A DNA stretch of 64,000 bases from positions 8,024 through 72,023 of IMG/VR virus record IMGVR_UViG_3300046011_007348, one strand, 5' to 3'. Made by a program: the position numbers and the translations under genes. Positions 3,687 through 64,000 of this stretch are shown here, in pieces. Origin of the DNA: a virus. Its lineage: Duplodnaviria; Caudoviricetes. The notes beneath the pieces are model-generated. The model saw only the letters and a program-made list of their open reading frames with translations, did not search any database and was not told the origin of the DNA. Each line of letters begins with the position of its first letter. The stretch's first letter is position 1.

Positions 3687-4797
3687 AGTTTCTTAATTGA
3701 ATAGGCATTGTCAATCTGATATTCTTGTCTAAATCGTCTACATTGGTTAAAATTACTGGACTTAACGGCTGATTTAGCTTAATTAATACTTCCTCCCCAT
3801 CTAATGATTTTAATCCATCCAGGAGGTATTTTAAATTGAATGCAGTTGTTACAGAGTCGCCAGATATTTGAACTGACTCAATAGCATCAACAGCAGAGCC
3901 AAGTTGTGGTTCTTCACTACTAATTTCTAATCTTTGATTACCAGCATCAAACACAACTTTAGCTATATTGTTGCGACTATCAGCCATAACACTAACTCTC
4001 TCTAATGCGCCGATAAAGTCTTTTTTGGGAGCGATAACAAAAGTTGTAAATTCTTTTGGGATTAGTCTTGAGTAGCTTGGGAATGTGCCTTCTAGAATTT
4101 TAGTTACTATTGTTATTTCCGCTGTTTGGAAGTAAGCAATGTAATCTTTGATAGTAAAACTTAGCTCATCATAAGCCTTAACAATTCTGGAAATTTCTGT
4201 TAAGACTTTAGCTGGAATCGTTACTTCCATTGTTTCTAATTCTTTGTCATGAGCAAATTTATGTACAGATAATCTATGCCCATCTGTACTAGCTAGTGTG
4301 ATAAATAAATCAGAGACAGTAATATTTACTCCTTGTAGAATTTGCTTTGTCTCATCTGTTGATGCGGAGAACAGTACGGCTTTTAAGCCCTGTAAAAAAG
4401 ACTCTGCTGGTAATTTAAGTTTGTCATCTTCATCTTGAACCATTGGTATTTCTGGATATTCTGACGCACTTAGTGCGTTGATTTTCACCTTTCCAGTTTT
4501 GTGTTTGATAATTACTGTACTATCATCCAAAGTAACGGATAAATCGCATAATTGAATACGATTTACTGTATCTAACAACAAACTTGCTGGTAAGCAAATT
4601 GAACCATTTGTATCTGTGCTACAATTGATTCTAGCTGTTATCCCAAAACTTAAATCGAATCCAGTGATAGTAAGCAAGTCGTCTTTAGCTGTTAACAATA
4701 CCGTGCCTAGTATTGGATGGGTGGGACGACTTGGGACGGCTTTAGAAACTATTCCTAAAGCATTAGCCAGCATTTTTTGGTTAACGTGAAATTTCAT
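3685..4797 (-). CDS. dnaN: DNA polymerase III beta sliding clamp
   Basis: SKAVPSRPTHPIL, ASTDETKQILQGV, STDGHRL, AFNLKYLLDGLK, MPIQLRN; cyanobacterial-like. Confidence 0.97.
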   Translation of the reverse strand: MKFHVNQKMLANALGIVSKAVPSRPTHPILGTVLLTAKDDLLTITGFDLSFGITARINCSTDTNGSICLPASLLLDTVNRIQLCDLSVTLDDSTVIIKHKTGKVKINALSASEYPEIPMVQDEDDKLKLPAESFLQGLKAVLFSASTDETKQILQGVNITVSDLFITLASTDGHRLSVHKFAHDKELETMEVTIPAKVLTEISRIVKAYDELSFTIKDYIAYFQTAEITIVTKILEGTFPSYSRLIPKEFTTFVIAPKKDFIGALERVSVMADSRNNIAKVVFDAGNQRLEISSEEPQLGSAVDAIESVQISGDSVTTAFNLKYLLDGLKSLDGEEVLIKLNQPLSPVILTNVDDLDKNIRLTMPIQLRN

Positions 4798-18039: not shown

Positions 18040-19163
18040 TGTAAATCACTCCAACTATCTGTAAATGTACAATTCCCTTCCATAACTCTAACAGTGTCTC
18101 CGTTATTCAATCTAACTAATATTTCATATCCATATTCTCCATCCATATCGTAAAATTCAGCGCTGTTTACGTATAATTCTAAACTAATTGTGTTGAATGG
18201 TATTACTCCAACCATGAATTTGGAATAAGGAGGGATGATAACATTACCTTCGGGTGCCAAAAGTTTTACTGTTGGTGTAGTTAATGCAGTAGGAGGGATT
18301 CCTACAAAATTTTCCTTGAAAGCTACTGCTCCTACATATTTCCATTCTTTATCAACATTAGAATAAGATTGAACATACAATCTTGTATTTGCAGTCATTG
18401 CGGGTAAACCTAAATACCAGCCTTGGATGCTTACATCTACTCCTGTTGTATTAGTTGAGTTAATCGCTATATCCGCACTTCCGTTGTTTAAGTAACCATG
18501 ACTATTTGTAACATAACAGTTGTAGCCATTAAGAGTGCCAGCGACAACTGTTTCTCTAATTTCAATACTTGTTTGTCCAGCATTTACAGTGTTTGCTACT
18601 GTAACTCCTGTTACTAATGTACCACTTGTAAAAGCAAGTATACTGCCAGCGGGGATTTGTTGAGTTACGCCTGTTACATTTAATGTATTTGATGTATTGC
18701 TAGTTACATTTACAGTAAAGCTGCTTGCTACATTAGCATGAAACGCAGCCACTGATGCAGAACGATTAAATATTCTAGCTTCACTAACTGTTTTAGTTGC
18801 ATTAGAACTTAAAACAAGAGTAGAGTCAGTAACAGCGTCTACTTTAGCAATTGCAACAGCGCCTTCAATAATTACTTTATCCCCAACTCTAACAGGCAGT
18901 AAAGACAATATTTTACTTTTGTCAGCTGTAGCAGGATATGCTTTAATTTGTACATTTGGGGTGTTAATTGTAGTAGATGCAGTAAATCGTTTAACTAAAC
19001 TAAATCCCGGAGATTTACGTCGAACTTCTCCAAATACCAAAGCATTTGCAAAGTTCATGCCATAACTACCTGTTACAGTTAAATTAAATCTAGCTGTCTC
19101 ACCTTTTTTAAGTAATAAATCTAATTTTTGTGTATTAAACTGAGGTTTAAATGGTTCAGTCAT
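18036..19163 (-). CDS. Putative baseplate-upper / fibre adaptor protein
   Basis: BppU-like termini (LLLKKGET...GEVRR; YGYEILV...VRVMEG) with inserted beta domains. Confidence 0.45.
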   Translation of the reverse strand: MTEPFKPQFNTQKLDLLLKKGETARFNLTVTGSYGMNFANALVFGEVRRKSPGFSLVKRFTASTTINTPNVQIKAYPATADKSKILSLLPVRVGDKVIIEGAVAIAKVDAVTDSTLVLSSNATKTVSEARIFNRSASVAAFHANVASSFTVNVTSNTSNTLNVTGVTQQIPAGSILAFTSGTLVTGVTVANTVNAGQTSIEIRETVVAGTLNGYNCYVTNSHGYLNNGSADIAINSTNTTGVDVSIQGWYLGLPAMTANTRLYVQSYSNVDKEWKYVGAVAFKENFVGIPPTALTTPTVKLLAPEGNVIIPPYSKFMVGVIPFNTISLELYVNSAEFYDMDGEYGYEILVRLNNGDTVRVMEGNCTFTDSWSDLQ

Positions 19164-19362
19164 AATCTAATTCCAATAAATAAGACGGACTAATTTCCAA
19201 TACTTTAGCTATTTTTTTAATTAAGCAAGCACGTTTAATTCCATTACTTTCCGCCCTAACGAGAGTCATGCGGCTAACTCCAATACAATTTGCTAGTTGT
19301 TGGCAACTAAAACCTTTTTCAATTCTACATTTTTTTAAATAGCTTCCCTGCCTTTTGGACAT
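19156..19362 (-). CDS. XRE-family HTH regulator
   Basis: LKKCRIEKGFSCQQLANCIGVSRMTLVRAE...IAKVLEIS. Confidence 0.9.
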   Translation of the reverse strand: MSKRQGSYLKKCRIEKGFSCQQLANCIGVSRMTLVRAESNGIKRACLIKKIAKVLEISPSYLLELDYD

Positions 19363-19424
19363 AATTTAATACCATAAAAGATACAGCTACAATAATTATT
19401 GCCATTATAATTAGCGAGAATAGT

Positions 19425-22578: not shown

Positions 22579-23015
22579 ATATTGAGCAACTTGTCAGTGG
22601 CGCGTTAGAACATTTGCCCGATAATTATTTTAGTACAGTTAATTTAGAGTTAAAATTCAACGTTGGCAGTGGTAGTTTTACAGTAGATCCAGAGACTGGG
22701 AATTATGTTCAATCATCTACTCCTACTACACTATTAGTTTCTGCAACTGAATACAAAGATCCAAAAGTGCTGCAAATGCCTGGCAGCTACAGTACTAGCT
22801 TAATCCAAGTCGAAGGACGGCTGAGTAATCCAAAATTGATGCCAACTACAATCACTGTTCAATCTGTTGGTACAGCTAAACTAACTAATAACGATGGTTC
22901 TATATTTCAAGGAACTTGGAAGTTCATAGCTATTACACAGAACAGAATAAATGCTTACACAACTAAAAGAGGTACGTTAATACGAGGTACTATAACGCTG
23001 CCAACAGCAGTCTAA
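22575..23015 (+). CDS. Putative head closure protein
   Basis: Position after adaptor; beta-rich. Confidence 0.5.
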   Translation: MNIEQLVSGALEHLPDNYFSTVNLELKFNVGSGSFTVDPETGNYVQSSTPTTLLVSATEYKDPKVLQMPGSYSTSLIQVEGRLSNPKLMPTTITVQSVGTAKLTNNDGSIFQGTWKFIAITQNRINAYTTKRGTLIRGTITLPTAV

Positions 23016-23034
23016 ATAATTTTTCAGAAAACTA

Positions 23035-23063
23035 TTGACAGGGATAAAATAGGATGCTATATT
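23035..23063 (+). promoter_or_regulatory. Sigma70-type promoter
   Basis: TTGACA-N17-TATATT. Confidence 0.65.
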
Positions 23064-23069
23064 AATTTT

Positions 23070-23210
23070 ATTCGATAAGCAATAGGCAAATTCTATGTTT
23101 GATTACGATTATCCCGAACGGGATAAAAAAGACAAACAGTAAGCTCTAACTTACTAACTTGCAATAGCTACACCACAACACAAATGGGGCCTCCGCAAGG
23201 AGGTTTTTTT
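23070..23210 (+). ncRNA. Candidate ~140-nt small RNA (or 15-aa ORF 23095-23142)
   Basis: Bounded by promoter and terminator; internal inverted repeat TTATCCCG-AA-CGGGATAA at 23109-23126. Confidence 0.4.
23189..23210 (+). terminator. Intrinsic terminator
   Basis: GCCTCC-GCAA-GGAGGT followed by T-tract. Confidence 0.85.
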
Positions 23211-23213
23211 ATT

Positions 23214-23432
23214 ATGTCAAACGTAGATCACCCACAGCATTACACAGCAAGTTCAGTTGAATGCATTGATGCAATTGCAGCAGCTTTATCTCCGGAAGAG
23301 CTAAGAGGATTCATCAAAGGCAATGTCATCAAATACTTATGGAGAAGCGAACACAAGAATGGTAATGAAGATTTACAGAAAGCTTTATGGTACTTAAATT
23401 GGTATGTCAATAAAATCAAAAATCCATCATAG
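23214..23432 (+). CDS. DUF3310-family protein
   Basis: VDHPQHY...ECIDAI...GNVIKYLWR...KNG.EDLQKALWYL. Confidence 0.9.
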   Translation: MSNVDHPQHYTASSVECIDAIAAALSPEELRGFIKGNVIKYLWRSEHKNGNEDLQKALWYLNWYVNKIKNPS

Positions 23433-24375
23433 AGTTTTTGTGTAATTTTCCATTTACCACCTTATATTGCTTTAGCCAGTTATAGGCAGTAGATTGGCAA
23501 ACACCTAAATAGAGTTTGCACCATGCGAATGATTTGCCATTAGAAAGTGCGTTTAAGACTGTTATCTTGACATTGTCATCGTAAGAAGGCCTGCCAATTT
23601 GTAATGGATTTTCAACAAACTGACTTTGGCAACTTTTGCATAAATATTGCTGCCTATTTCCTCTTTTCCCGTTCTTGACAACATTTTTGCTTAAACAGCT
23701 AGGACAAACAACAATATCGTTGACTACATTTTTAAGTAGTTCTATACCTTCAGATTCTAGTTGTTTAATTTGGTATACTGACAAATTTAATAATGACTTA
23801 ATATCTTGTATTTTATAATCTTCAATATAAATTAATCTAAGTATTTGTGCGTGCTTGCTTGGAATTTTAGCTAGTATTATCTCTAATTCATCGATAGTAG
23901 AGTTATCAAAGTAACTGATTTCAGGAAGTTCTATGTGAATTTTATCATGAGCTATCGCAGCTTCTTTGGCGGTTAATTCTGAAATAGTCAAGTCCCTAGC
24001 TGATTGTTCATAAGTAATGCCTTTCTTTTTAGCATTACGCATTATTTTCTGATAAATGTCTTGGATATTCCTAGGGATTTTAACTAATCTGTCCTTGTCC
24101 CGCAGGAACATTAGCATATATCCATTTATAAAAGGAACAGCAAAGCTGGACAACTTTTTAGACTTTTCAGGATTATATCTTTCAATAGCTTGAATTAATC
24201 CTAGACACCCAATTTGTACTAAATCCTCTAATGGAACAGAGCAAGACTTCTGGACTTTTTGAGCAACAGAGTAGACAAGTCCTAAATTCTTTTCTACAAT
24301 CTTATTTCTTATTTTTATGTCTTTACTCTCGTAGTATTTGATTAGCAGCTGTTGGTTAACATCAAAATTCATCAC
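23416..24375 (-). CDS. SigF/SigB-like sigma-70 factor fused to IS1 InsA-like Zn-ribbon + HTH
   Basis: RNKIVEKNLGLV, EDLVQIGCLGLIQAIERYNP, SSFAVPFI..FLRD..VKIPR; C-terminal CPSC..VVKNG..QQYLCKSC..F followed by HTH (LGVCQSTAYNW). Confidence 0.88.
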   Translation of the reverse strand: MMNFDVNQQLLIKYYESKDIKIRNKIVEKNLGLVYSVAQKVQKSCSVPLEDLVQIGCLGLIQAIERYNPEKSKKLSSFAVPFINGYMLMFLRDKDRLVKIPRNIQDIYQKIMRNAKKKGITYEQSARDLTISELTAKEAAIAHDKIHIELPEISYFDNSTIDELEIILAKIPSKHAQILRLIYIEDYKIQDIKSLLNLSVYQIKQLESEGIELLKNVVNDIVVCPSCLSKNVVKNGKRGNRQQYLCKSCQSQFVENPLQIGRPSYDDNVKITVLNALSNGKSFAWCKLYLGVCQSTAYNWLKQYKVVNGKLHKNSMMDF

Positions 24376-24446
24376 ATTAACACAAATGTTACATATTTAT
24401 GTTACTTTAAAAATGGCAACTTTATAGGTAAACTATTCAGGAAACT

Positions 24447-24854
24447 ATGAAAGCTATTTGGAATAAAAATATTAATATTTCTCCTAAGACTGCTACTTAT
24501 ACTTGGAGTGCAAATTACGCTCCTATTGTTCATGAAGGCGGTACGAGAAAGGATGGAAGTGATTTACCTGCTCGTCCCTGGGTTTGGAGAACCGTAGGAT
24601 TAAATGGACAGGAAAGACGTTATGATATTGTACAGGATTTCAATGATAAAATACGTACAGCAAATAGTTTCGATGAATTGTTTGAGGACATTGCAACTGA
24701 ACTTAATAGTGAATTTAGGAAGACTATAGAAGCTGAAATATTTGCATGGGATGCAACGACAAAAAGGAAAAATAGCTCTACAGTTACGTCTCCAAGAAAT
24801 ATTGTTGATTTAGGAAATTTAAGAAACTCTCAATCTATGTCTATACAGCCATGA
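24447..24854 (+). CDS. HK97 gp10-like neck/tail completion protein (motif order permuted)
   Basis: YAPIVHEG..PARPW and SPRNIVDLGNLRNS motifs. Confidence 0.65.
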   Translation: MKAIWNKNINISPKTATYTWSANYAPIVHEGGTRKDGSDLPARPWVWRTVGLNGQERRYDIVQDFNDKIRTANSFDELFEDIATELNSEFRKTIEAEIFAWDATTKRKNSSTVTSPRNIVDLGNLRNSQSMSIQP

Positions 24855-25225: not shown

Positions 25226-25263
25226 TCTTGGCAACTATTACAAAAGAAGTATAGGGGATTTAT

Positions 25264-30559: not shown

Positions 30560-30586
30560 GCCAAAATTTAAAACTCAATCTATCTA

Positions 30587-30624
30587 ATAGTAGATGATTT
30601 TCAGGATAATGTCAATAGATTATC
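30587..30624 (-). promoter_or_regulatory. Sigma70-type promoter
   Basis: Minus strand GATAATCTA-TTGACA-N17-TACTAT. Confidence 0.65.
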
Positions 30625-32339: not shown

Positions 32340-32375
32340 ATAACGTCAATAGTTTTAGGAATAGTGATATATCTA

Positions 32376-32404
32376 TTGACAAAGTAGCCAAAATGCTTTA
32401 CTGT
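32376..32404 (+). promoter_or_regulatory. Sigma70-type promoter for helicase (divergent partner near 32345-32352)
   Basis: TTGACA-N17-TACTGT. Confidence 0.55.
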
Positions 32405-32408
32405 TAGA

Positions 32409-34312: not shown

Positions 34313-34338
34313 AACAATGGTAAAAATGGTACTCTAAA

Positions 34339-34366
34339 ATTATACTATAATCCATTGACATGTCAA
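34339..34366 (-). promoter_or_regulatory. Consensus sigma70 promoter; -35 lies in palindrome TTGACATGTCAA
   Basis: Minus strand TTGACA-N16-TATAAT. Confidence 0.6.
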
Positions 34367-34382
34367 ATTTAAAATTTATTTA

Positions 34383-34413
34383 AAGCAAAGCCTGTGTTGA
34401 TTGGCACAGGCTT
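34383..34413 (-). terminator. Terminator of tail-tip operon
   Basis: AAGCCTGTG-N8-CACAGGCTT with T-rich tail on minus strand. Confidence 0.65.
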
Positions 34414-34416
34414 AAA

Positions 34417-45899: not shown

Positions 45900-46478
45900 A
45901 TGATTAAAAACGATAAGTGGATTCTAGAAGAATGTAAAAAAGGGATGATTCAACCATATGAAACACAACTTGTTAAATACAACAATGGCAAGCGAATTAG
46001 TTATGGATTATCTTCTTATGGTTATGATATTAGTTTGTCTGACACAGAATTCTGGGTGTTTAGAAATGATAACAATACTGTTGTCAACCCCAAGAATTTT
46101 ATTAGAACAAATCTAGAATCTGTGCCTTTGCAAAAAGATGAATATGGAGAGTTTTTTGTAATTCCAGCCCACTCTTATGGATTGGGAGTTGCACTAGAGA
46201 AAATTACAATGCCTGACAATGTAACTGCTGTTTGTGTTGGTAAAAGCACTTATGCCAGAGTTGGATTGATTGCTAACATCACTCCTGTTGAAGCTGGATG
46301 GAGTGGACATTTAACATTAGAATTTAGCAATTCTTCCGGTGCTGACTGCCGAATTTATGCAAATGAGGGAATAGCACAATTACTGTTTTTTGAAGGTGAG
46401 ACTTGCTCTACAAGCTATAGTCAAAGACAAGGCAAGTATCAAGATCAGCCTGAGAAAGTGGTATTCGCTAAAGTCTAA
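45900..46478 (+). CDS. dcd: dCTP deaminase
   Basis: ISYGLSSYGYD, GKSTYARVG..NITPVE, IYANEGIAQLLFF, GKYQDQ. Confidence 0.96.
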   Translation: MIKNDKWILEECKKGMIQPYETQLVKYNNGKRISYGLSSYGYDISLSDTEFWVFRNDNNTVVNPKNFIRTNLESVPLQKDEYGEFFVIPAHSYGLGVALEKITMPDNVTAVCVGKSTYARVGLIANITPVEAGWSGHLTLEFSNSSGADCRIYANEGIAQLLFFEGETCSTSYSQRQGKYQDQPEKVVFAKV

Positions 46479-47125
46479 GATTGTTGGATTACATTCTCTA
46501 TAAGAGCAGCAATCTCCGCTGCTTTTTTAACTTGTGGGCATTTAATAATATGGCAACATACTCTTTCTAATAACAAAAATCCAACATACTTGCCTTCAAT
46601 TAAGTAAAACATATAGCTATAAGTCTTCCTCGACTCTAACCATGTTTGGCATACCTTGCCATTTTTGACATTAGAAAACACATATTTATCACCAGATTCT
46701 AATAAAAAATTAACTTGCAATGATACGTAAGAATAAATACATTTATTGTCTAAAACTTGCATTTTTTTTGTTTTAGCACATACTTCTATCCAGGTGGAAA
46801 AGCTATCTGCAAATATGCCTTTATCAGTCCTCTTTGTCTGATCCAAAAAGAATAATGTAACTCTATTAAATCCTGCACTTATCAGCTCTTGTAAATATGA
46901 TTTAATGTATTCCTCCTCTTTAGTGGTAAAGGATGGTGTATTTAATGTGTTCATGGAATTTATTCTGTCATTTAATGTTTTTACACTTTTCTTAATCAAG
47001 TAAATTATCCATGCACTTATTAAAGAAAATAAGATAGGAAATGCGTCTATAATCAATTGAGACGCGACAGATGACACTAAAGATAAATCGTTATTTTGAG
47101 AAGGAACTTCTTTGTATTCAGCCAT
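46475..47125 (-). CDS. Single-TM protein with possible GAF-like domain (holin candidate)
   Basis: TM at aa ~24-44; FNRVTLFF...YVGFLLLE beta pattern. Confidence 0.45.
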   Translation of the reverse strand: MAEYKEVPSQNNDLSLVSSVASQLIIDAFPILFSLISAWIIYLIKKSVKTLNDRINSMNTLNTPSFTTKEEEYIKSYLQELISAGFNRVTLFFLDQTKRTDKGIFADSFSTWIEVCAKTKKMQVLDNKCIYSYVSLQVNFLLESGDKYVFSNVKNGKVCQTWLESRKTYSYMFYLIEGKYVGFLLLERVCCHIIKCPQVKKAAEIAALIENVIQQS

Positions 47126-47165
47126 TTTTTTGCTCCCTAGCTGCTCTTAAATAAAAGTTGCCAAT

Positions 47166-50100
47166 CTATCTTTTAAGTATTCCACCCTGTCTTTGTTGAC
47201 GTTGTATTTCTACTATTACTGCTGTTTTAATAGCACTCTGCATCGCATTTGGATCTATGGACGGTGATTTGTCACCATCTTGACTTTCAATCGTTATAGG
47301 CACATTTACAGTTGTATTTGTTGTTGGTTGATTAATATTTCCTAGTCCAGGAGATGGGGGAATAACTCCACCACTTGCAAAGTTCATTATGTTTCTTACT
47401 TTTAATTCGCTATTGCTTACGTTGCCTCCCATGGCATAGTTCATTACGGATTCAATATTGTTGTTTTTAATTGCTTTATCTAATCCCATCGACTGGAACT
47501 TAGCATTGTCAGCAACACTCAACACTCTTTCTCCTGGCGTTAATACTGCTACTACTGGTGTTATTCCTCCATTTGCAGCTTTCTCTCTGACAATTGCTTC
47601 ATTTAATGATTGAATTATGCCTCCACCAGCATAGTTCTTGATTACTCCTCCTTTGTATTGGCTGGATACTTCGCCTCCATCGTTGGCACTTGGGACTTCG
47701 CCGCCGCTATTTCCTCCAAATATTCCTCCAATTGATTTGAATAATGAATCAAGAATCCCTCCTGCTCCTACTAATGATTGCATTAATGATTTGATAGCTA
47801 TGTTGATAAGTCCGTTTAGCATGTTTTTAGCTAGGTTGTTTAAGACATCGTCTAGTTTTTGGACACCCATTATTACGTCTGTAAGCCCAGCTGATAAATC
47901 ATTGATCAAAGAATCTCTAACCATTTGACGGATTGTCGAAACTACATCCTTAGCTGCGTTTTTAGACTCTTCTAGTTTTGCTTTGTATTTTTCTTCAATC
48001 TCCTTAGTTCTTTCTTCATATTCCTTGTCATCTATATCCCCCCCCTCTTTTTCTTTCTTTGCTTTATCTAGTTCGTCTTGTTTCTCTTTTTTTAAACGCT
48101 CTTCATCCATCCTCCGTTGTTCTGCATTTATTTGAAACTGATTGCCACCTTTGTCTCTATATATATTTAATCTTGTTTGAGCCGTTTCTTGTTTCATGGC
48201 AATGACAGTTTGCTTAATATCTTTTGTTAAATCTGTCATTAACTTGGTTTGCATTTCTTGGTTTTTCCGTACAAGATCTGTTCTTTGTTCCTCATTCAAC
48301 AAAACGCTTGCATTAATTTGAGCCTCACGCAAAGCAGTTGCTTTCTCGATTTCATACCGTCTTGATGCAAATTCACTTTTAGAAAAATTATAGTCAACAG
48401 AGTTCATTAAATCTCTTCTTTCAAACCTCCTGTCTACTTCTGTTTTAGTTTCGTTAGCTTTATCAATTTCAAGCTGAGATTGGTTTTGTATTCTTTTTAT
48501 TCTAGTAATTTCTCTATATTTTTCTATTCTTGCCTCTGCGTCTACTGAGGTTAATAGTCCTTTTGCTACTAACTCCTTTGTGTTTAATTCATATTGTGAT
48601 AAAGCATCTTCAATTTGAAGTTTTCTCTCTTCAAATTGCAACTCTGGCACTGAACGGATATTTAATAACTGCATTTGGTTAAATGGCATAAGTCCTTCAG
48701 CGAAAGAATTTTGTATTTGCGAATCTTGTGTTACAGGGAAATAAGTATTGCCTTCCAATTTGTATTCATCCATACCACCAAATCCAAATTTGCTTCTAGG
48801 CTTCATTAGTTCCGTTAAATTATTAAATCTTGGTTCATTGGGGTTTGCTGTTGGCTTTTTCAGCTCTTCAATTAACCGTAAACCCTTCAATTCATCTACT
48901 AATTTAGCATTCTCCTTAATACTTTGATTAAACTTTGGTATATCTGAATGCAATTTATCAACATCTATGTTATATTGCTTAATGTCTGAGTCAGTCATCT
49001 GGATTGCTTTAGGATATATTTCCTGTAGCCTTAAGACTTCTTTGTCCAATCTTTGTCCTTCCGTCTTTTGCTTTTGAAAGATTTCTTCTAGGTATCCCTT
49101 TTGTTGTTCTGGTGTCGTAAAATCAATTGTCCCTACTCGTTTGATACTAAACTTTGGATCTACTTGTTCTTGGAATTTTATTTTCCCCCCAGAATACTCT
49201 CCTATCTCTCTACCCTTTTGACTTATATCTAATTCAGCTTGTCTTAAAACATTATCCGAATCTCTTATTTTAGATCTATTCTCATACTCTCTTCTAAGCC
49301 TAGACATTGCTTTAGTTAATTTAATCCTTTCTTCAATTTCTTTCTTTTGAACGTCTATCGACTTCAAGGTAGTATCTAAAGTTGCTATATCCACTTTGAA
49401 TCGAGAGGCTAATCGTTGTTCGTCTTTGTTAAGGCGATCTAGATATTTCTCTCTTTGTTTTACATCTGTGATTTGCTCAAGCCCTTTCCTGAGTGGGTTA
49501 AACAAAGCTAACGTATCAGTTAGTTTACCATCGGTTCCTTTTACAAAGGATTGTCTAAGAGAATTTAATCTCTCTTGGATATCTTGTCTTGTATCATTTA
49601 ACTTATTAAGAGTGTCGGTTAACTTTATGCTTTCGGGTGTTAGTGGATCGGGTAATTTATCAGGAGAATATTCGTTAAGTATGTCAGAAAACGATCTTAC
49701 TAAACTATTAGTGGAATCCCTAGACTCTCTGATTGTTTTTTTAGTATTTTTAAAGAAATTATCAAGATTACGAATAACTGATGCTTCGTTTTGTTTTCTT
49801 AAAGCTTCAGCACGCTTTTTGTTTGCTTCATCTTGTTGTTTAAGAATCTCTTCCCTTTGTTTTTGAGAATCTGCGATAGCACCAGTGTTTACGCCAGCAG
49901 ATGGAGAAGTAGAGCCAGTATTAGCAGCGCCAGTATTGGCAGTCTCAGGATTATAGCTTCTAGCTCTCTGGAAAGTTTTCATGCTATCGCTATCTCCTAC
50001 AAATCGCCAGTGCCATGGTTCATAATCTATACCTTGACGATTATTCTGAGGAAAAGATAATTCAAAGCCAAAACGAGCAGCGTTAGATTGTAACCATGAA

Positions 50101-53100
50101 AATGCTTTTGTTTTTTCAAATGTGGAATTGAGATTAGTTCCTGGTGCTGCTTTATCACCAATATCGACAGCATATCCTGTATGATGCTCACTATAACCCG
50201 GAGGAGCGCTAACTTTTGCTCTTTGTTCTGGAGTTTGATTGCGTTGGGCAGCTACTCCAAAAAACAATTGTCGTTGCTGTTGAATGGAACGAAAACCAGA
50301 AATAGGAACTAGAACTACACCTTCCTCTTTAGCTCTTCGTGCCATGTATTCAAATTTTTCAGCAGCAATTTGCCGTAGTTTAATTTTCCCGTCAGTTGTG
50401 ATAGGACTTAGCTCTTTCAGAGGTGCTTCGTTATAAGCTAAATGCCCATACTTGCTTTCATTGTTACTTGATGTGGTGTTTGACGCACTCCCTGCTCTAG
50501 CAGAAGCTGATGGCACAACAGCAGATATTGGCGTTTGCCCAGTTATAAAAGGTGTAGGATCTATTGCCCGTCCATTAACCCTTATCTCAAAATGCAAATG
50601 AGGGCCGGTGCCTACTCCTGTATTGCCTAATTTTCCTATTTGTTGTCCAGCTTGAACAACGTCCCCAACCCGAACCAACATTTCAGATAAGTGTGCATAT
50701 CGCGTTTCAAGTTTTTTATTGTCTGGTGTTGTATGTTCTATGTAAATTACCTTTCCATAGGCACCCTGAGTTTTAGCAATTTTTACTATGCCAGGTAAGC
50801 TAGAAACAATAGGTTCCCCAATTTGTCCAGCAAAATCCCTTCCTGCATGCCTTCTACCAGGACGAGGATCTCCAAAGTGCCCCCCGGGTACAGTCCTTCC
50901 TCTGTTTGGGTGCGGATGCACAAAACTACTAACGCTAGATGGTGGGTTTTGTGATGCACCGAAAAAACTAAATAAAGAAGAAAACACGCCTTGAACACCG
51001 TTAGAGTTAGATGAATTACTAGATGTCGAAGAGTTGTTAGTAGGAGTTGATGGAGCCGGTGTTGCATTAGAATAAGGATCTATTTTTATGCCCGCAGATC
51101 TCTCTAATAAATCAACAGTTTGTTGCAAGCTAACATTCATATTAGAAACAGATTCATTAGCTTTTACCATATTTTCATTTAATTTTTCGGTGTTTTTATT
51201 AGCCTCCCCCGACTCTTTAACAGTTTGTTGAGTCTGTTGAGTTACTTTTGCCGCTGATGCTCTAACTGCATTTATTAAAGCCTCTAGTTCTTTGCTTGAT
51301 TGTGTAAAAGCTTGTTTCATATCAGACTCAATATCTTCTGTGACTCCAATAATGTCTTTACCAGAAGGCAATGTCCTTATAAGTTCTCTTGCTTCTATTT
51401 GGCTATCTTTAATTCTATTTTTAAAATCTAAGCTAGTTCTTTCAGTATCTATTTGACTTAAAGCGGTTTGGTTTAATTGTTCTATGATAGATACCAACCC
51501 ATCTATATATCTAGTAAATTCAGTGTCTCCTAATCCGGTTAACGCTTCATTAATTTTGGTTTTAAAGTTAGCGTTTTGTATTTCTTGGTTAGCTTTTTTA
51601 ATCTCTAATCGCCCTTGATCTATCTCTTTAGTAACAGAACGAACGTAATCATCTACCTGTTTTTGTTGTTGTCTTAAAGACTCTTTTAAATCATATCTGC
51701 TTTTAGCTAATGAACTGCGAGCGGTAGCAAGGCTCGTGGCATCATCTTGAGTTTGTTTTCTTAATTCAGTTATTTTATCTTTAGCTTCAGTATTAAGATT
51801 GCTATCAGGTATTGTACTGAGTAAATCCAAAGCTGCCTTTCTCATTGTGAATAAACGAGACAACCCAGACACTCTTTGTTCTTGTGATATTATCCCAGAT
51901 CTCCGTGTTGCATAATCAACATCCCCAGGATTAGCACCGGAGCTATATATCCTTTCCTCTCTAAGTGCAGTAGATCTATCAATGTTTGCAGAAAACCTGT
52001 CGTAAGCAGCTTGAAATCTATTTAATGCAGATAAAGTATCTTTGTAAACTTGTTCTAAAGGATTAACAGGGACACTTTTTTCAATGATTTGCTTTGCTTC
52101 CTGTGCAAAATCTTTCATCTCTTTAGCTATTTGCAGATAAGCACCTCTCACGGGTGCTGGAACAGTTTTTGCCGCATCCTCTAGTTTTTTCGCTTCTTCC
52201 AGTAAAACATTAGCCGAATTAGCGTTGGCTTCTACATCCTTAGCCAACTCTTTTCTTAATGCAAGTCTCTGAACTATTTGTTTAGATAAATCCGCAGCCC
52301 TCTTTTTTGACTCTGGGGTATTTTGTTGAGTTGCTTTTGATTTTTCAACAGATAAACCTAATACTTCTATGTCAATTTGTTTTAATCTATCAGCAACGTC
52401 TTTTACCCTAGCTTTATATTTGTTTTGAGTTTCCTTGGTTAACCCTAAGTTACCAAATTCTTTTTTGCTACTTTGTAAAACAGAATCAAAGTAATCTAAA
52501 TTATCAATTACCTGTTTAACTCCAAGTGTAATATCGTAATCAGTATCAGATACAAGTCCTTTTATATCATATTTTTTAAGAATTGCTTTTTGTTTAGGAG
52601 AGATTTTATCAGTTGCATATTCTCCCCCGAATCCAGTATTAATATTTTTATCAAGGCCACGCCTCCTGTTTTCCCCTTCTCTCTGCGCTACAATCTCTTC
52701 GTATTTGTTGTACTCCATTAACCCCAAACTGTTTTTATCTATTTCACCTCTTAATGCTTTATTTACATTTTTGACAAAATCGTCTGTAGTATATCCTTCT
52801 TCTTTCATCCCAAAAACATAAAAAATATCAAGCTGAAGCCCTTTTGAGGGAATAGAATCAGCAACGTTTTTATATCCTTTAGCCAACTCCTTGCTGCTTT
52901 TTTGGTTAACTTTAGAAGCTTCATCAACTTTTGCTAATGAATTACTAATACTTCCCAAAGCTCCATTAACAGATCTAGCCATTTCGCTAATGCTTTTCTG
53001 CATGGGGTTAGAAAAATCACTTCTAGCTAAAAACATAAAGGCTAGTGCTATACCAGCTTCTATCCCAATTTTTGCTAAGCTTTTTAATGATTTCATTAAA

Positions 53101-56100
53101 CCTGCAAGCATTTGAGACAAAGCTTGTCCCCATGCTGCTCTAGCGCTACTTGCAAGCATTCCATCGGAGCTAAATAAAAGAGTAAATGCTTTTATAATTC
53201 CAACAGATGTAATTGTTTTCCCCAGTGAAGTAAGTGATGCTCCAATTGCGTTTAAGCCTCCAACAACACCTTGAGTCCATGCAAAATTTAGAGCAGCTTT
53301 TAGCCCTTTAAAACCATTTCCTACAAGTTGGAATAATCCAACAAAAGAAGCCCCAATTCCTTGCCAAAATCCAGCCTTAAAGCCAGCTGTTATATTTGCC
53401 ATAAAACCTGCAAACGCTGCTTTTGTTGCGCTAATTCCATCTATAAAACCACCAAATATTGCAGATGCCCCGATTGTGGCTGGAAGCTGCTTAAAAAATC
53501 CAGTAAAAGAAGCCCATAGCCCTTTCATCTGAGTAGCTATTGTTGTTTTGGCAGAATAAAAAGCATATGCTATTTCATCTTGTAATCTAGTTCCTATGGG
53601 TGAACGTTGTTTAGACTCGACTTGAGCAGATAAGTCAAAAGTGTTTGTGAATAAAGACTGTATTCCTTTTGGAGAAATTGCTTCATTTTTCATCCCTACT
53701 AAAGACACTCTTATCCCATTAAGTCCCTGTAATAACCCCTTAAACATTGGCATCCCAAAATGTTTTGTAAGGGTAATTAATTGCTCAAACATTAAAACTA
53801 AAGCAAGCAGTTCAATTACACCAGAAGGAATAACTTTAGTTATATTGCCGATTCCATCAATAAAAGACTTAAAGGGGTTTTCACTTGGCTTTCCTACAAT
53901 AGTATCAAACAACCCTTTCCCAGTAATTTTTCGTTTTACACTATCCAAACTACTTAAAAACCATAGAATTCCATTACTTACGCCTTCATACATGTTTTGC
54001 ATTAATGTCTTCTGAGCGCCTAAAAAATCATCTAAAACATCAGCTAAAATGCCTAAGAAAAATGGCCCTAACGCACCCATAAGCGCGGCAATACCCGCCG
54101 TTAACAAACCAGATATATTCATTAAAAAAGTTTTTACTGGGTTCATTTTTAATAAGAAAACTAACCCAACTCCAAGAGTGGCAGTTACACCAATAACAAA
54201 GGAGCTAAAAATTTTGATTATATCGTCTAGGATTGCATTTATTGCGGACGCTATGTTTGAAAAGATATCAACTACAAACGAAAATAATCCACCAAAAGCA
54301 TTGACTAATTTAATAGACATTTCCATCCCAATGTTTTGCAATCTAGTTAGTGAGATAGAAAACCCTTCAGCTCCTTTTGCCGCCCCGCTATAGTCTATTT
54401 TTAATTGTTTTGCAACTTTGGGTAATACTTCTTCTGCTAGCAAACTACCTGCTGAGGACATTTCTATTAATTGGGGTATAGAAATGTCTAGTGCCTTTGC
54501 AAATATACCCATAGCGGGAGGGAATCTTTCACCCAGCTGCTGTCTTAATTCTTCCATGGAAATTTTGCCCTTGGACAGCATTTGAGTATAAGCCATAAAT
54601 ACTAACTCAGCGTCTTGCCCAGATATTCCTAGCGCGCCTAGTGATGCACTAATACCTTCAAATAAATCCCTAGCGCCTTCACCTTCTAATTTTGTTCCTC
54701 TAGCTGCAATAGCAATTTGGCTGTAAGCCTGAGTAGCTGCTTTAGCTGGAACGTTTAAGGCTTTGGCTGTGTTCATTGCATAATTAAGCTCTGCTTTCCC
54801 GCCTTCTTTTGAGCCACCCAAAAAGTTTAATCGCCTTTGTAATGGCTCTAACTCCAGCATGGCCTTAACAAGAGACTGTATTTGATTTCTAACCATAAAT
54901 ACAGCCCCACCAATAGCTCCAAATAACGGAAGCAAAGGTGTTACCAATGGTAATAAAGTTGTGGCAAAAGTTGTGATAGGAGCAAATACACTAGCGGCAG
55001 AAACAATAAATGAAAGCATATTCTTTTGAATATCCTCCCTTTCGTCTGGCGCAAAGTTTTTCATTTTATCTCGCTTGAATTGAGCGCCAATTGCATTCCA
55101 GAAATCTTTAAAAACGTTTTTAGGTACGACTATACCTCTTTTCCATTGAGTAACTATCTGATCCCAAATTTCTTTTGGGTTTTCAGCTCCTAATGCTTTT
55201 CTAACTTCTCTTTTAACGTCAGAACCAACATTTTTCCAGTTGGCAACAGCTTCATTAAACCCTTTAATTATGGCTTTACCAATATTTAACCCTTCCTGAG
55301 TAAATGCTTTGTGAAAAGCAGATATACCCAAAAGCAGAGCTGTTATTGCCATTTTTACCTGAGCTGTGTCTATTTTTATCCCCATAGTTGCGGCAACGTT
55401 TTGAAGCCCACTCGTCTTAAATAACTGTTGGGCTGTACGTGCTGTCATATTAACAGCGCCTTCAACATTCCCAGACGCATAAGCATTGGCTATCCTAACA
55501 GCTCTACCACCCAATCCATTGGTAGCAGAAAGCATTCCAGAATCAACAATTTTATTTATTAAAAAGTCTCTAATACTGTTAACAATCTTGCTATTTTTTT
55601 CTAAAATCCCTCTCAATAAATTACTATTCCCAGGGTTTTTAATAGTAAAACTATCAAACAGTGTTCTTAAAACTTGTCTAGCTAAGTCTTTAGCACCTGT
55701 TCCTTCTATACCAATAGAACTTATGTTTGTTTTAATTTGATTTTGAAGAGTTTGGGTTAAATTTTCCCTAGGGACATTTTCCCCAAGTGCTGGTAATTTA
55801 TCGCCATACACAGAACTAGCAAAACCAGCTACTTTTCGTCCAGCTTGCGCTAAAAAGGGTATGCTAGACAACGTTTTAAAAAATGGGTTTTCGCTACCTA
55901 TAAACAATCTAAATAGCTTGCTTATTCCAAAAGCTTGTCCCCCTTTATCTCCCATTTTATCTTCCCTGCCTAAATCAATTCCTGTAACAGACTTGATGAC
56001 AGAAGGCAACAACCCTCCTGGCTGGAAGATGTTGTTATTTTTTAAAAGATTAGAAGCAAACTGCCCTATCTTTCCTGCTTTATCACCTATCAGCCCTGGC

Positions 56101-59100
56101 AATAATGGCGCTAGAAGCGGCAGTAAATTAGTAAGATTAGCGCTACCACCAGTTACCATTTCAAACAGTTTAGGAGCCATTTTGAACAAACCCAGGCTAG
56201 AAAGTGCATTCATACGCCCTGTGTCCATAAAGTTTTTCTCAATCATGTTTTGGAGGCTCTTCCCAACAGCTTTACGAAGATAGCCTCCTAGAGAAAAAAT
56301 GCCCACTCCTTGTCCAGACGTGCTTGAAAACCCGTCTACAATACTGTCAAATAGTTGCTTAAATACAGATTGCTTGCTAGTTGCAACAGCACTTCCAGAT
56401 TCTTTGACTATAGAGCTTACAGTCCCAAACCCAACGTTAACACTTTGGGCTTTTTTCCGAGAAAATTTATACGCATTTAAAATACTTTGTTGTATTTCTT
56501 TATCAGTCATTCTACCGGACGATACATCAGCAACAAATTTTTGTAATTTTTTGTCTATAAGATTTTTCTGTGCAGCATAAAGACTCTTTTGGGATTGAGA
56601 TATCCCAGGAGTATTCATTAACTCATCTATCCGTTTTTTATATTCTTCTGATATTTTATGGCTTGCTAATAATAGAGTAGAAACCTTCTTAGATGAGTTT
56701 CTTATAAGAGGTAAAATATTCTGGTATCTTAATTCAGGAGCATTTTTATCGTAATTCATTAAAACATCAAAATCTGACTTCGCTGCCTTTGCTATTTGAT
56801 TTTGTTGTTTTTTACTAAATCCTAAATAGTGCATTGTATCTTTATTAGGCTTCATAACTTTGGATCTTAAATAATCCATTGCTTCTGCCTCGCTACCAAA
56901 ATTTCCCTGCTTATAAGACTTAGCAAAGTCTTTCAAGTCTGCATCTATTTTCTTTTTAGATCTTGCAAGCATGCCCTTTGAATATTTAGTAAGAGCTGGA
57001 TTATTCATTTCTTTATCAACAAACTTTTTATATTCTTGAGATATTCTATGAAATGAATAAACTAATGATGCTGTAGCTCCATCCTCAAAACCTTTTCCAA
57101 AGTCAAGCCCCACCCCTTTCATTATCAAGGAGGGTGATGATATGCGCAAAACTTTTTTGACACTTTTAACTAACGAAAAGAATGACTCTGAGATAACTTT
57201 GCTTTTAGAACCAAAATTACTAAACCCATTCAAAAATCCTTCTACTAAATTAAAGCCTATTTTCAAGAAAGTTTTTGGTAGTCCTTGAGGGATAATGCCT
57301 GATATTCCTTTTAATAAATTTCCTCCTAATTTACTAAAAATACCTTGAGGCATTATAGACAATATTCCTTTAGGTATAACTTGCCCTATTTTAGAAAAAA
57401 TATTTTTAAATCCAGTAGGTAAAACCGCTAAAAACTGGTTAGAAATCATTGACAATAAAACATTCCCAACTCCTTTCAAGTCAAAGTTTTTTAACATTGA
57501 AAACATGTCATTGTCTAATTGTTCTTCAACACCATTATTTAGTCGCTCCTCATCTTGTAGTGGCTTACTTCTGCTTTTTTGCCTAAACCTACTTTTAGAC
57601 TTTTGTTTGGCTTTATCGCCATACATATAATTAAGAAAGTCTGGATGTGTAAAAACAGTTTCTTCATTTATTGGCTTGTTTTCTTTTTCTAACTGCTTAT
57701 AAATTTTGGAGTAAAGCCTTTTCAACTCTCTTTCTTTTTTAAGCGGTACTTGTCTTTGCTGTACATAGCTTTGCCCTCCAATTATGTCGTGTAAGCTATC
57801 ACTTACTTTTATTCCACCACTAGGATTAATGCTTATCAAGCCAGACGTTCTTCTTTTAAATTCTTTGTCAGACATTGCACTAAGATTAGACTTCGTGACA
57901 TTAACGTGCCTGCCATCGCTTTCCAATAATACCTCTTTCCTGGCAATAGCTTCTGTCTCTATTTGTTTTCTGGTTTTACCTAGATTTGTATGCCTTGTGT
58001 ACCCGCCCAAGTCATCTTTTTGGAGATTTAATGATTTTGCAATAGCAGGGAATTTATCTAATAAAGAGATTAATTTAGAATTTATACTAGCAGGCAATGG
58101 AATGGTAACACCTTCCGGAAAGCTCCTTTTTTGTTTTGACTTTGCACCTGCCCAATCATAAACATCTACTGCATTTATCCCAGTTTTTGTTTTAACTACA
58201 CCAAAACCCCCAAGAGTTAGTTGCAGCGATCTAAGATCTTTCAAAAGTAAATCAAACTCAAGTTTTTTACTTGAATTAGCAAATTTAGATTCACTGTCAA
58301 ACGCGCCTAAGTAACCATAGCCAGACTGTTGCTTACCTTTATCAGCTAGAAAAACACTAACAGCATCTATTATAGGGGATAAAGAGTTTTTATCATTAAA
58401 CTTAATTACATCTGTATTTCCCCTATAAAATTTACCAAGATGAGACATTGGGATATTCTGCTCTACAGAAGTAGGTTTCCTGCCTAAAGCCGGCAATACC
58501 GTTGACAATATTTTGCTGTTTGCAATTAGAAAACTACCTATATCTTGAGATAATTCATTAGAACCTTTTGAGCCTTTTCTTGAGTTTTTAAAAACTTGTT
58601 TTACCTTGGTTGCATAGGCTTTATTCTTGTCATCAACAGCATTCTCTATTAAGCTGTCCAAAGACTCCGCGCCTTGCTCTGTTGTGTCTTTAACGGTAGA
58701 GATTACTTCGTCAGCAGCTTTTTTTACATTAATTTTATTTGTAACTAAACCAATAGCCAAACCCGCAGCTATTGCAGCACCAATACTAATAAAAACTTTA
58801 GAAGGTGAAGATATGCCTAATATTTTTTTGAATGCAACTATATATTTTTTAGCTTCTTCTTCCCCAAGTGTTTTAAATGCAGATGAGTTTGTCTGAATTC
58901 CTTCCTGATTTGCTTTAGCTATCAAATCAGCTTCTTTTTTTACTTTTAAATATGATTTACTAACTTCTTGTTTAACACTTTTTTCGCCTGCGCTAATCGG
59001 TGATTTAGCTTGCGCTATTTCATTTATTTGTTGTGGAGTTGCATTTAAGCTTTTAGCTTCCGCCATTAGCTTTTCTACTGCTTTTCTACTGTCACTACTT

Positions 59101-60527: not shown

Positions 60528-60560
60528 AATTTTACCAATTATATATATACAATGTTGCCA

Positions 60561-63879: not shown

Positions 63880-63987
63880 ATGGTATACAAAACCGAGATA
63901 GAGGCAAGGTATGTGTTGCCACATGGAGTAACAATGCAATCACCAGAGTTTGAGAGCTGGTGTAGAGAGTGGAGAGTTTTGCTGTAA
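63880..63987 (+). CDS. Possible 35-aa ORF
   Basis: MVYKTEIEARYVLPHGV...; short, no family evidence. Confidence 0.3.
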   Translation: MVYKTEIEARYVLPHGVTMQSPEFESWCREWRVLL

Positions 63988-64000
63988 AGCACTTTTGCAT

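Follow-up and report, generated by a model that had tools for sequence, protein, structure and literature searches.

What does a DNA-binding module of the kind found at the front of a transposase do at the back of a phage sigma factor? The question is raised by one gene of IMG/VR virus record IMGVR_UViG_3300046011_007348 (G000 below; 72,023 bp, ~52% complete by CheckV estimate), from a virus of cyanobacteria related to Cylindrospermopsis phage Cr-LKS4; bases 8024-72023 of this record, 64,000 nucleotides in all, form the window analysed here. The record has no other sigma gene; this one sits where the head/neck genes give way to the tail genes. Exactly one sigma gene is likewise present in G001, a complete 86,305-bp relative genome, and in Cr-LKS4. 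The gene of the window encodes 319 aa when read from the GTG at 24375, or 318 aa if the next codon, the ATG at 24372, is taken as the start, and joins a SigF-like sigma factor to a C-terminal tail of the type found at the N-terminus of InsA from the insertion sequence (IS) IS1. As described in a first-pass annotation of this DNA, the sigma regions run in frame into CPSC..VVKNG..QQYLCKSC..F and a helix-turn-helix (HTH) with STAYNW; the open reading frame (ORF) is unbroken and carries exactly these words. Its parts, some of them read from AlphaFold2 (AF2) models, are as follows.

23416..24375, minus strand: whole sigma-IS1-head fusion gene, a single ORF, stop included.
24088..24300, minus strand: sigma-70 region 2, residues 26-96 (Pfam PF04542, E 3.1e-17, 62.5 bits against a cut-off of 24).
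23947..24072, minus strand: region-3-like three-helix stretch, residues 102-143 (AF2 helices 102-118, 122-128 and 133-143).
23731..23874, minus strand: sigma-70 region 4, residues 168-215 (Pfam PF04545, 28.7 bits against a cut-off of 24.1).
23611..23712, minus strand: Cys4 zinc ribbon, residues 222-255, with C224, C227, C246 and C249 (Pfam and NCBIfam matches, cysteines invariant in nine fused sigmas, AF2 strands).
23440..23577, minus strand: three-helix HTH, residues 267-312, with the recognition helix around STAYNWLKQY (NF033558, AF2 model, alignment with InsA-like proteins).

The origin of the 104-aa tail was addressed by profile searches, alignment and structure prediction. The tail matches positions 1-81 of the 199 positions of the NCBIfam model for IS1-family transposases (NF033558, E 7e-14), as do the tails of two diverged relatives (E 2.5e-15 and 2e-11); the IS1/IS1595 zinc domain NF050000 scores 47.7 bits against a cut-off of 28, and the Pfam family Zn_ribbon_InsA (PF03811) is found at residues 222-250 with 26.5 bits against a cut-off of 26.1, or 29.1 bits with the tail alone. 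The same layout, an IS1-family InsA N-terminus, had been named from the letters, and these three models bear it out, with NCBIfam scores far above what chance would give; the whole-protein score for NF033558 is 52.2 bits, below its cut-off of 100. When aligned with 32 short InsA-like proteins, the tail, with its words CPSC (C224, C227), VVKNGKR, QQYLCKSC (C246, C249), QF and STAYNW, shows the shared pattern CPxC..KNGK..(K/R)Q.Y.CK.C..QF ... G.S.R.I....GI.H.T...W. An AlphaFold model of the tail made on this alignment (pLDDT 85) contains a ribbon of three strands, then a linker modelled with low confidence, then three helices at tail residues 52-63, 68-75 and 79-97 (pLDDT about 90-96), and in the full-length AF2 model the region-4 helix ends at residue 218, with C224 six residues on.

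The likeness to IS1 InsA and the N-termini of IS1-family transposases (NF033558, NF050000, PF03811) consists in the same Cys4 ribbon followed by an HTH, over ~82 alignable residues; unlike InsA, the head in the window is single-copy, stands at the C-terminus of a sigma factor rather than at the N-terminus of a transposase, and has no DDE part, frameshift partner or IS ends. A six-frame search of G000 and of the complete G001 with NF033558 recovered positions 1-81 only, only inside the sigma gene and in one copy each, and the DDE catalytic part (positions 82-199) was found in neither genome, in frame or frameshifted. A repeat search of 22900-24700 gave only short, weak inverted matches and no IS terminal repeats, in agreement with the earlier statement that no catalytic InsB/DDE frame or terminal inverted repeats follow. 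Judged from its sequence, the tail is a complete IS1 InsA-type head (Cys4 ribbon, short flexible linker, three-helix HTH) without transposase remnant. According to the accessible part of PMC12903888, binding to both IS1 ends requires a zinc-finger and HTH motif that InsA and InsAB' have in common at their N-termini.

In its body the protein resembles SigF (group 3 type) and has sigma regions 2 and 4 with a region-3-like stretch between them. It passes the sigma-70 superfamily model TIGR02937 (90.7 bits against a cut-off of 42.9, residues 23-216), and in PHROGs it matches phrog_351, 'RNA polymerase sigma factor', at E 3e-40, with a weak match to a transposase family over the ribbon. The top-scoring named NCBIfam model for the sigma part is that of Synechocystis/cyanobacterial SigF (PRK07408, E 1.2e-40), and cellular SigF proteins are the nearest non-viral relatives of the window sigma; its score of 139.8 bits nevertheless lies below the PRK07408 membership threshold of 261, as does that of TIGR02980 (SigBFG, 106.6 bits) below 234.35. 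The SigF and SigBFG models align to the region-3-like stretch up to about residues 133-162, whereas Pfam region 3 (PF04539), annotated on the cellular relatives, was not reported in the window sigma. A further difference is that the cellular proteins are without a C-terminal DNA-binding tail, as seen in 17 of 17 cellular matches. Region 4, which the first-pass annotation had regarded as degenerate, passes its Pfam cut-off here and in three of five other fused sigmas (35.6, 32.9 and 32.7 bits; the remaining two, at 19.8 and 21.0, lie below) and is equally well conserved in the unfused Cr-LKS4 orthologue; on these scores it is therefore not degenerate. The label 'late sigma' is circumstantial, being drawn from the position of the gene in the tail/head module and from a motif before tail genes that is described below.

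The fusion recurs well beyond the window. A search of 5.8 billion proteins returned 21 at E <= 0.001, four of which align over 96% or more of the query, tail included (one identical, two at 64% and one at 41% identity), the other 17 being cellular or other sigmas with 30-67% query coverage and no tail. Twelve loci were confirmed in IMG/VR (labels L005-L011 below denote such loci), nine of them fused (five near-identical, three at 63% and one at 41%), and the remaining three belonging to a different phage with an unfused 253-aa sigma. With a profile of the tail, 1912 matches at E <= 0.001 were obtained among 1.84 billion representatives; 20 of the best 150 were Pfam-scanned, and among these 20 are five further fused sigmas, denoted by P-numbers as protein cluster representatives from that search (P0023, a split-gene piece, P0024, P0025, P0026 and P0068). 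Together, the fusion is present in nine protein clusters, down to 37-41% identity and with a common junction, on independent assemblies from several sources, so that its conservation in relatives, a check set in advance, is seen. An alignment of nine fused sigmas has 16 invariant columns, four in the sigma body (L129, L150, P151, L214) and 12 in the tail (C224, C227, G236, K237, C246, C249, F253, G261, G280, S282, W285, W300). Selection on the sigma body and the tail was estimated by Nei-Gojobori counts, with pN and pS as the non-synonymous and synonymous proportions. Between the window and L008, pN is 0.226 in the sigma body and 0.232 in the tail with saturated pS (0.75-0.82), and between the window and L011 it is 0.405 and 0.419, pS again being saturated (0.78); among L008, L009 and L010 themselves, the tail has 2-3 synonymous and 0-1 non-synonymous differences. 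These comparisons show purifying selection on the fusion, which is old and present in a single copy.

A 'long' subtype of the fused sigma, of 369-373 aa (L011:221-1330, P0024, P0026, P0173 and P0196), carries an extra conserved helical tail of ~60 aa after the HTH, with a CP.(C/S) word. The gene after this sigma in L011 presumably encodes a ThyX-type thymidylate synthase, as read from its translation alone. In databases, the fused sigmas are named only 'sigma-B factor', 'sigma-70 family' or 'transposase-like protein'. Neither a description of a sigma fused to an IS1/InsA head nor a discussion of the Cylindrospermopsis phage sigma was found in the literature, supplements and subscription journals lying outside the coverage of the search. 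A search of 185,579 species genomes for a host or prophage returned one truncated 2-kb contig from a metagenome-assembled genome (MAG), L022, at 64% identity over residues 1-185, together with multi-copy IS-like heads in Bacteroidales and other MAGs, matches that assign the virus to no host.

The closest named phages carry the sigma without the tail. The two best phage-database matches, Cylindrospermopsis phage Cr-LKS4 and C. raciborskii virus RM-2018a, share 46% identity over residues 2-218, and none of the 190 matching records in that database reaches 80% query coverage. Gp25 of Cr-LKS4 (OQ625504, WHL30591.1) and its RM-2018a counterpart (MH636380) are syntenic orthologues, each likewise a lone opposite-strand gene between head/neck and tail genes; the difference is that the Cr-LKS4 sigma, of 225 aa, stops right after region 4 and has no ribbon or HTH, with no trace of them elsewhere in the genome (zero matches in a six-frame NF033558 search). 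By tblastn, 43 of the 75 ORFs called in G000 match Cr-LKS4 and 61 match G001. In a maximum-likelihood tree of 28 sigma cores (nine fused with tails removed, two unfused phage and 17 cellular), which has long branches and calls for some caution, the Cr-LKS4 sigma nests in the fused clade (clade support 98/97) as sister of the window's subgroup (97/93), and an approximately unbiased (AU) test rejects the nine fused sigmas as a group without it (p 0.003). From this nesting, it is most likely that the Cr-LKS4 lineage lost the tail, the simplest history inferred from the tree being one gain and one loss; the tail would therefore be useful enough for long retention, yet not indispensable. The Cr-LKS4 record (L015/L016) also contains three annotated transposase genes, two CRISPR arrays and mirrored gene blocks near one end.

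Taken together, the tail is best explained as a domesticated accessory DNA-binding head just after region 4, adding affinity or selectivity, a reading to which we assign a probability of roughly 0.45. In the first-pass annotation, a domesticated transposase DNA-binding domain had been proposed that may add promoter specificity to a late sigma with a degenerate-looking region 4; the InsA-type module, its conservation and its selection hold, and the degenerate region 4 has to be given up. Region 4 is the portion of sigma in contact with the -35 region. Because the head directly follows region 4, starting about five residues past its last helix, it would in the holoenzyme come to lie on DNA at or just upstream of -35, normally the place of activators and of the C-terminal domains of the alpha subunits. 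There it may read the sequence or shape of double-stranded DNA and, hung directly on region 4, serve phage promoters as an activator built into sigma or as a reader of upstream elements, contributing binding energy or selectivity; promoters with just a TGGCAAY core and an A/T-rich upstream stretch would be the likely beneficiaries. The head would be an accessory that takes no part in core promoter recognition. One lineage, that of the Cylindrospermopsis phages, most likely shed it while retaining the gene, the gene's position and the candidate motif. Class II activators and the T4 pair MotA and AsiA also use an extra DNA-binding domain at or upstream of -35 to redirect the polymerase, and they do so as separate proteins; the likeness would be one of working only, the DNA binder in the window being covalently part of sigma.

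The same head is carried by other regulators. Among the 20 Pfam-scanned matches to the tail profile, it is present on five TetR-type proteins (at the C-terminus in P0088, P0095 and P0101, on a TetR C-terminal fragment in P0075 and at the N-terminus in P0041), on two GntR/FCD proteins (P0063 and P0142), after an ECF-type region 4 (Sigma70_r4_2) in P0073 and on a pentapeptide-repeat protein (P0036). In most of these proteins the head is at the C-terminus. The TetR, GntR and ECF fusions suggest, at the level of domain matches, a reusable accessory DNA-binding head, and some of the proteins listed could be IS-insertion chimeras. A bolder proposal is that the window protein represents a natural sigma/transcription-factor chimera in which a transposase-derived, sequence-specific reader makes for a three-part promoter or tethers the sigma to special sites (e.g. 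terminal inverted repeats, like InsA at IS ends), as part of a wider undescribed habit extending to TetR, GntR and ECF-type region 4; we regard it as possible but on the doubtful side. To our knowledge, sigma factors are thought to read promoters by regions 2, 3 and 4 only, extra promoter specificity normally coming from separate activators. A conserved sigma with a covalent, transposase-derived DNA-binding head would give a virus a compact means of retargeting the host polymerase. It would also be a clear instance, in a bacterial virus, of a transposase domesticated into the basal transcription machinery, and would supply a design ready for use in the engineering of orthogonal sigma factors. 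Sigma factors with a fused domain are already known, and the IS1-head version appears new. A natural comparison with and without the head is provided by Cr-LKS4, which has been isolated and whose host is in culture.

A number of observations speak against an accessory DNA-binding head, and they are set out here and in the following paragraphs together with the competing explanations on which they bear. The tail is dispensable in at least one lineage, as Cr-LKS4 nests in the fused clade. The near-identical variants L005-L007 differ in the tail by no synonymous and one non-synonymous change, whereas their sigma part has 8-10 synonymous and no non-synonymous changes (too few to weigh), an uneven spread that may reflect a recombination mosaic or chance. 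That pattern would suit a chance, functionless IS scar or an assembly or gene-calling artefact, as would one related contig of 72,757 bp in which the gene is split: its fused sigma is called as two pieces, P0023 and P0174, named 'sigma subunit' and 'transposase-like protein'. An unbroken form of 334 aa, P0175, is found elsewhere. The same junction and an intact frame are however found in nine clusters down to 37-41% identity on independent assemblies, neither IS ends nor a catalytic remnant is present, and tail pN equals that of the sigma body with synonymous sites saturated, pointing to purifying selection on the tail. The chance-scar explanation, which the first-pass annotation had tied to relatives lacking the extension and to missing purifying selection, is rejected on the conserved junction in diverged relatives and the tail pN, and we leave it next to no probability.

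It also counts against the accessory head that searches of the PDB by sequence, profile and Foldseek found no solved structure covering the tail. With the whole protein, all of the best 60 sequence matches lie within residues 5-178. With the tail model, Foldseek gave nothing at E <= 0.001; its matches, all at E >= 0.17, were generic ribbons, among them TFIIB- and Brf1-type ones at E 0.2-1, and HTHs of the resolvase or LuxR type. The tail profile found only polymerase-associated ribbons, weakly, with RPB9 on top (E 0.0012) and, at E 0.11, the N-terminal domain of TFIIB. A zinc ribbon that contacts RNA polymerase rather than DNA, in the manner of the TFIIB B-ribbon or of other ribbons that bind polymerase, and so helps the phage sigma to hold the host core enzyme against competing host sigmas, would account for these matches. 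The RPB9, TFIIB and Brf1 scores are nonetheless at noise level and reflect a generic ribbon fold, and the IS1 models score at least 10 orders of magnitude better and also span the HTH, so that a polymerase-binding ribbon is highly improbable.

The full-length model has a pTM of 0.36 and does not place the domains confidently relative to each other, a further point against the accessory head. It offers no confident docking either for an auto-inhibitory or sensing domain that would fold back on regions 2 or 4, or serve as a Cys4 redox or zinc switch, as in ECF41/42-type sigmas. Such a role would be in line with the invariance of the four cysteines and with the fused C-terminal regulatory domains that are known in ECF sigmas, as far as the accessible parts of PMC3426412 and PMC7826278 describe them. 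Both halves of the tail, including the HTH recognition helix, are however homologous to a known DNA-binding head, and the same head is found on TetR and GntR regulators that have ligand-sensing domains of their own; a sensing role is accordingly held to be rather improbable. ECF fused-domain sigmas are two-domain proteins whose extensions are regulatory or membrane-linked. ECF41, ECF42 and ECF52 sigmas likewise have a conserved extra domain at the C-terminus in the available portions of their descriptions, whereas the window protein is a group-3-like phage sigma with a transposase-type DNA-binding head.

The DNA before the phage genes bears on both the accessory head and its remaining rival. 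A motif TGGCAAY, followed within 2-4 nt by TA(T/A), occurs before tail and other structural genes. G000 has 52 TGGCAAY sites, eight of which fall in the non-coding 3.9% of the genome against 2.0 expected (binomial P 9e-4, post hoc), and six of these eight lie 21-35 nt before a start codon on the correct strand. These six, with the intergenic region next to the sigma gene and a direct repeat inside it, are listed below.

24414..24420, plus strand: TGGCAAC, candidate late-promoter core, 26 nt before gene 24447 (tail completion/Neck1-like).
25229..25235, plus strand: TGGCAAC, candidate late-promoter core, 28 nt before the major-tail-protein-like gene 25264.
19398..19404, minus strand: TGGCAAT, candidate late-promoter core, 35 nt before gene 19156-19362 (minus strand).
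47157..47163, minus strand: TGGCAAC, candidate late-promoter core, 31 nt before gene 46475-47125 (minus strand), the gene before the giant ORF.
60554..60560, minus strand: TGGCAAC, candidate late-promoter core, 26 nt before the 4453-aa ORF 47166-60527 (minus strand).
G000 base 4597, outside the window: sixth well-placed TGGCAAY site, before one gene there.
24376..24446, 71 nt: intergenic region from which the sigma gene and the tail-completion-like gene diverge, containing TGGCAAC and GTAACAT-N6-GTAACAT.
24386-24405, minus strand: direct repeat GTAACAT-N6-GTAACAT, just before the sigma start.

TGGCAAY is a reasonable candidate for the promoter core of the phage sigma. G001 has 3-4 sites of this type, two of them at orthologous positions; the sites orthologous to 25229..25235 in G001 and Cr-LKS4 also carry TGGCAAY, and TGGCAATAAT at the 19398..19404 site is conserved at the orthologous G001 site. 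In Cr-LKS4 one site is exact, that of the orthologous major-tail gene, and variants stand before the tape-measure, capsid and g06 genes. SigF promoters of Synechocystis contain, according to the accessible part of PMC2532724, a -12 element GGTAA, to which the TGGCAAY core bears a loose resemblance.

For the accessory head itself, the motif brings further adverse points. It was picked after being seen, and the binomial P of 9e-4 is obtained in G000 only, the values for G001 and Cr-LKS4 being 0.15 and 0.79. Reading the motif does not require the tail, since TGGCAAY-type sites also stand before the major-tail gene and the tape-measure gene of Cr-LKS4, a phage with a tail-less sigma. A by-eye alignment of the 75 nt preceding the six well-placed G000 sites, four G001 sites and four Cr-LKS4 sites showed no second conserved block; in G000, most of that space is taken up by A/T runs and by hairpins that resemble terminators. 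Computation thus gives neither a DNA target for the tail nor support for a three-part promoter.

The lack of a shared upstream element at the candidate late promoters agrees with another possibility, namely that the tail is an InsA-like operator-binding repressor or switch acting at one or few sites to shut or time transcription, candidate sites being its own promoter region with the GTAACAT repeat, early promoters and the genome terminal inverted repeats. The accessible part of PMC12903888 describes InsA as repressing its own expression by attaching to its promoter and to the inverted repeats at the IS ends (citing Ohta et al. 2004), and the accessible part of PMC2532724 reports that Synechocystis SigF autoregulates. 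The GTAACAT-N6-GTAACAT repeat just before the sigma start occurs just once in G000, perhaps as an operator and perhaps by chance, and G001 has exact terminal inverted repeats of 127 nt, longer with mismatches, with two copies of a AAAAGTGCTTTACAGC-type word per end. On the other side, the GTAACAT repeat is absent from G001 and Cr-LKS4 (0 matches each), neither it nor AAAAGTGCTTTACAGC is shared across G000, G001 and Cr-LKS4 as a candidate tail-target word, the sigma upstream region is not conserved between G000 and G001, and nothing ties the tail to any candidate site. A repressor or tether of this kind is, on balance, unlikely.

Near-consensus host-type promoters (TTGACA, 17 nt, TATATT/TATAAT-like) are present in many intergenic regions of the window, e.g. 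30560-30624, 32340-32408 and 34313-34416, and with the TGGCAAY sites they suggest, as motifs go, two promoter classes in this phage. A generic sigma-70 promoter scan around the sigma gene gave 10 sites against 8.4 +/- 2.9 in shuffles and is thus uninformative about the promoter of the sigma gene itself. One host-type promoter, at 23035-23063 on the plus strand, precedes a small gene convergent with sigma; this 82-aa gene (23184-23432) overlaps the 3' end of the sigma gene by 17 nt (23416-23432), matches PHROGs families annotated 'nucleotide kinase' (E 1e-29), and has a counterpart in G001 and no tblastn match in Cr-LKS4. Part of the 4453-aa ORF at 47166-60527 (minus strand) is similar to a Cr-LKS4 protein annotated as tape measure (44% over 416 aa) and to a long ORF of G001. 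The right end of the window (63980-64000) matches the terminal inverted-repeat region of the complete G001, and the G000 record probably ends near the true genome terminus.

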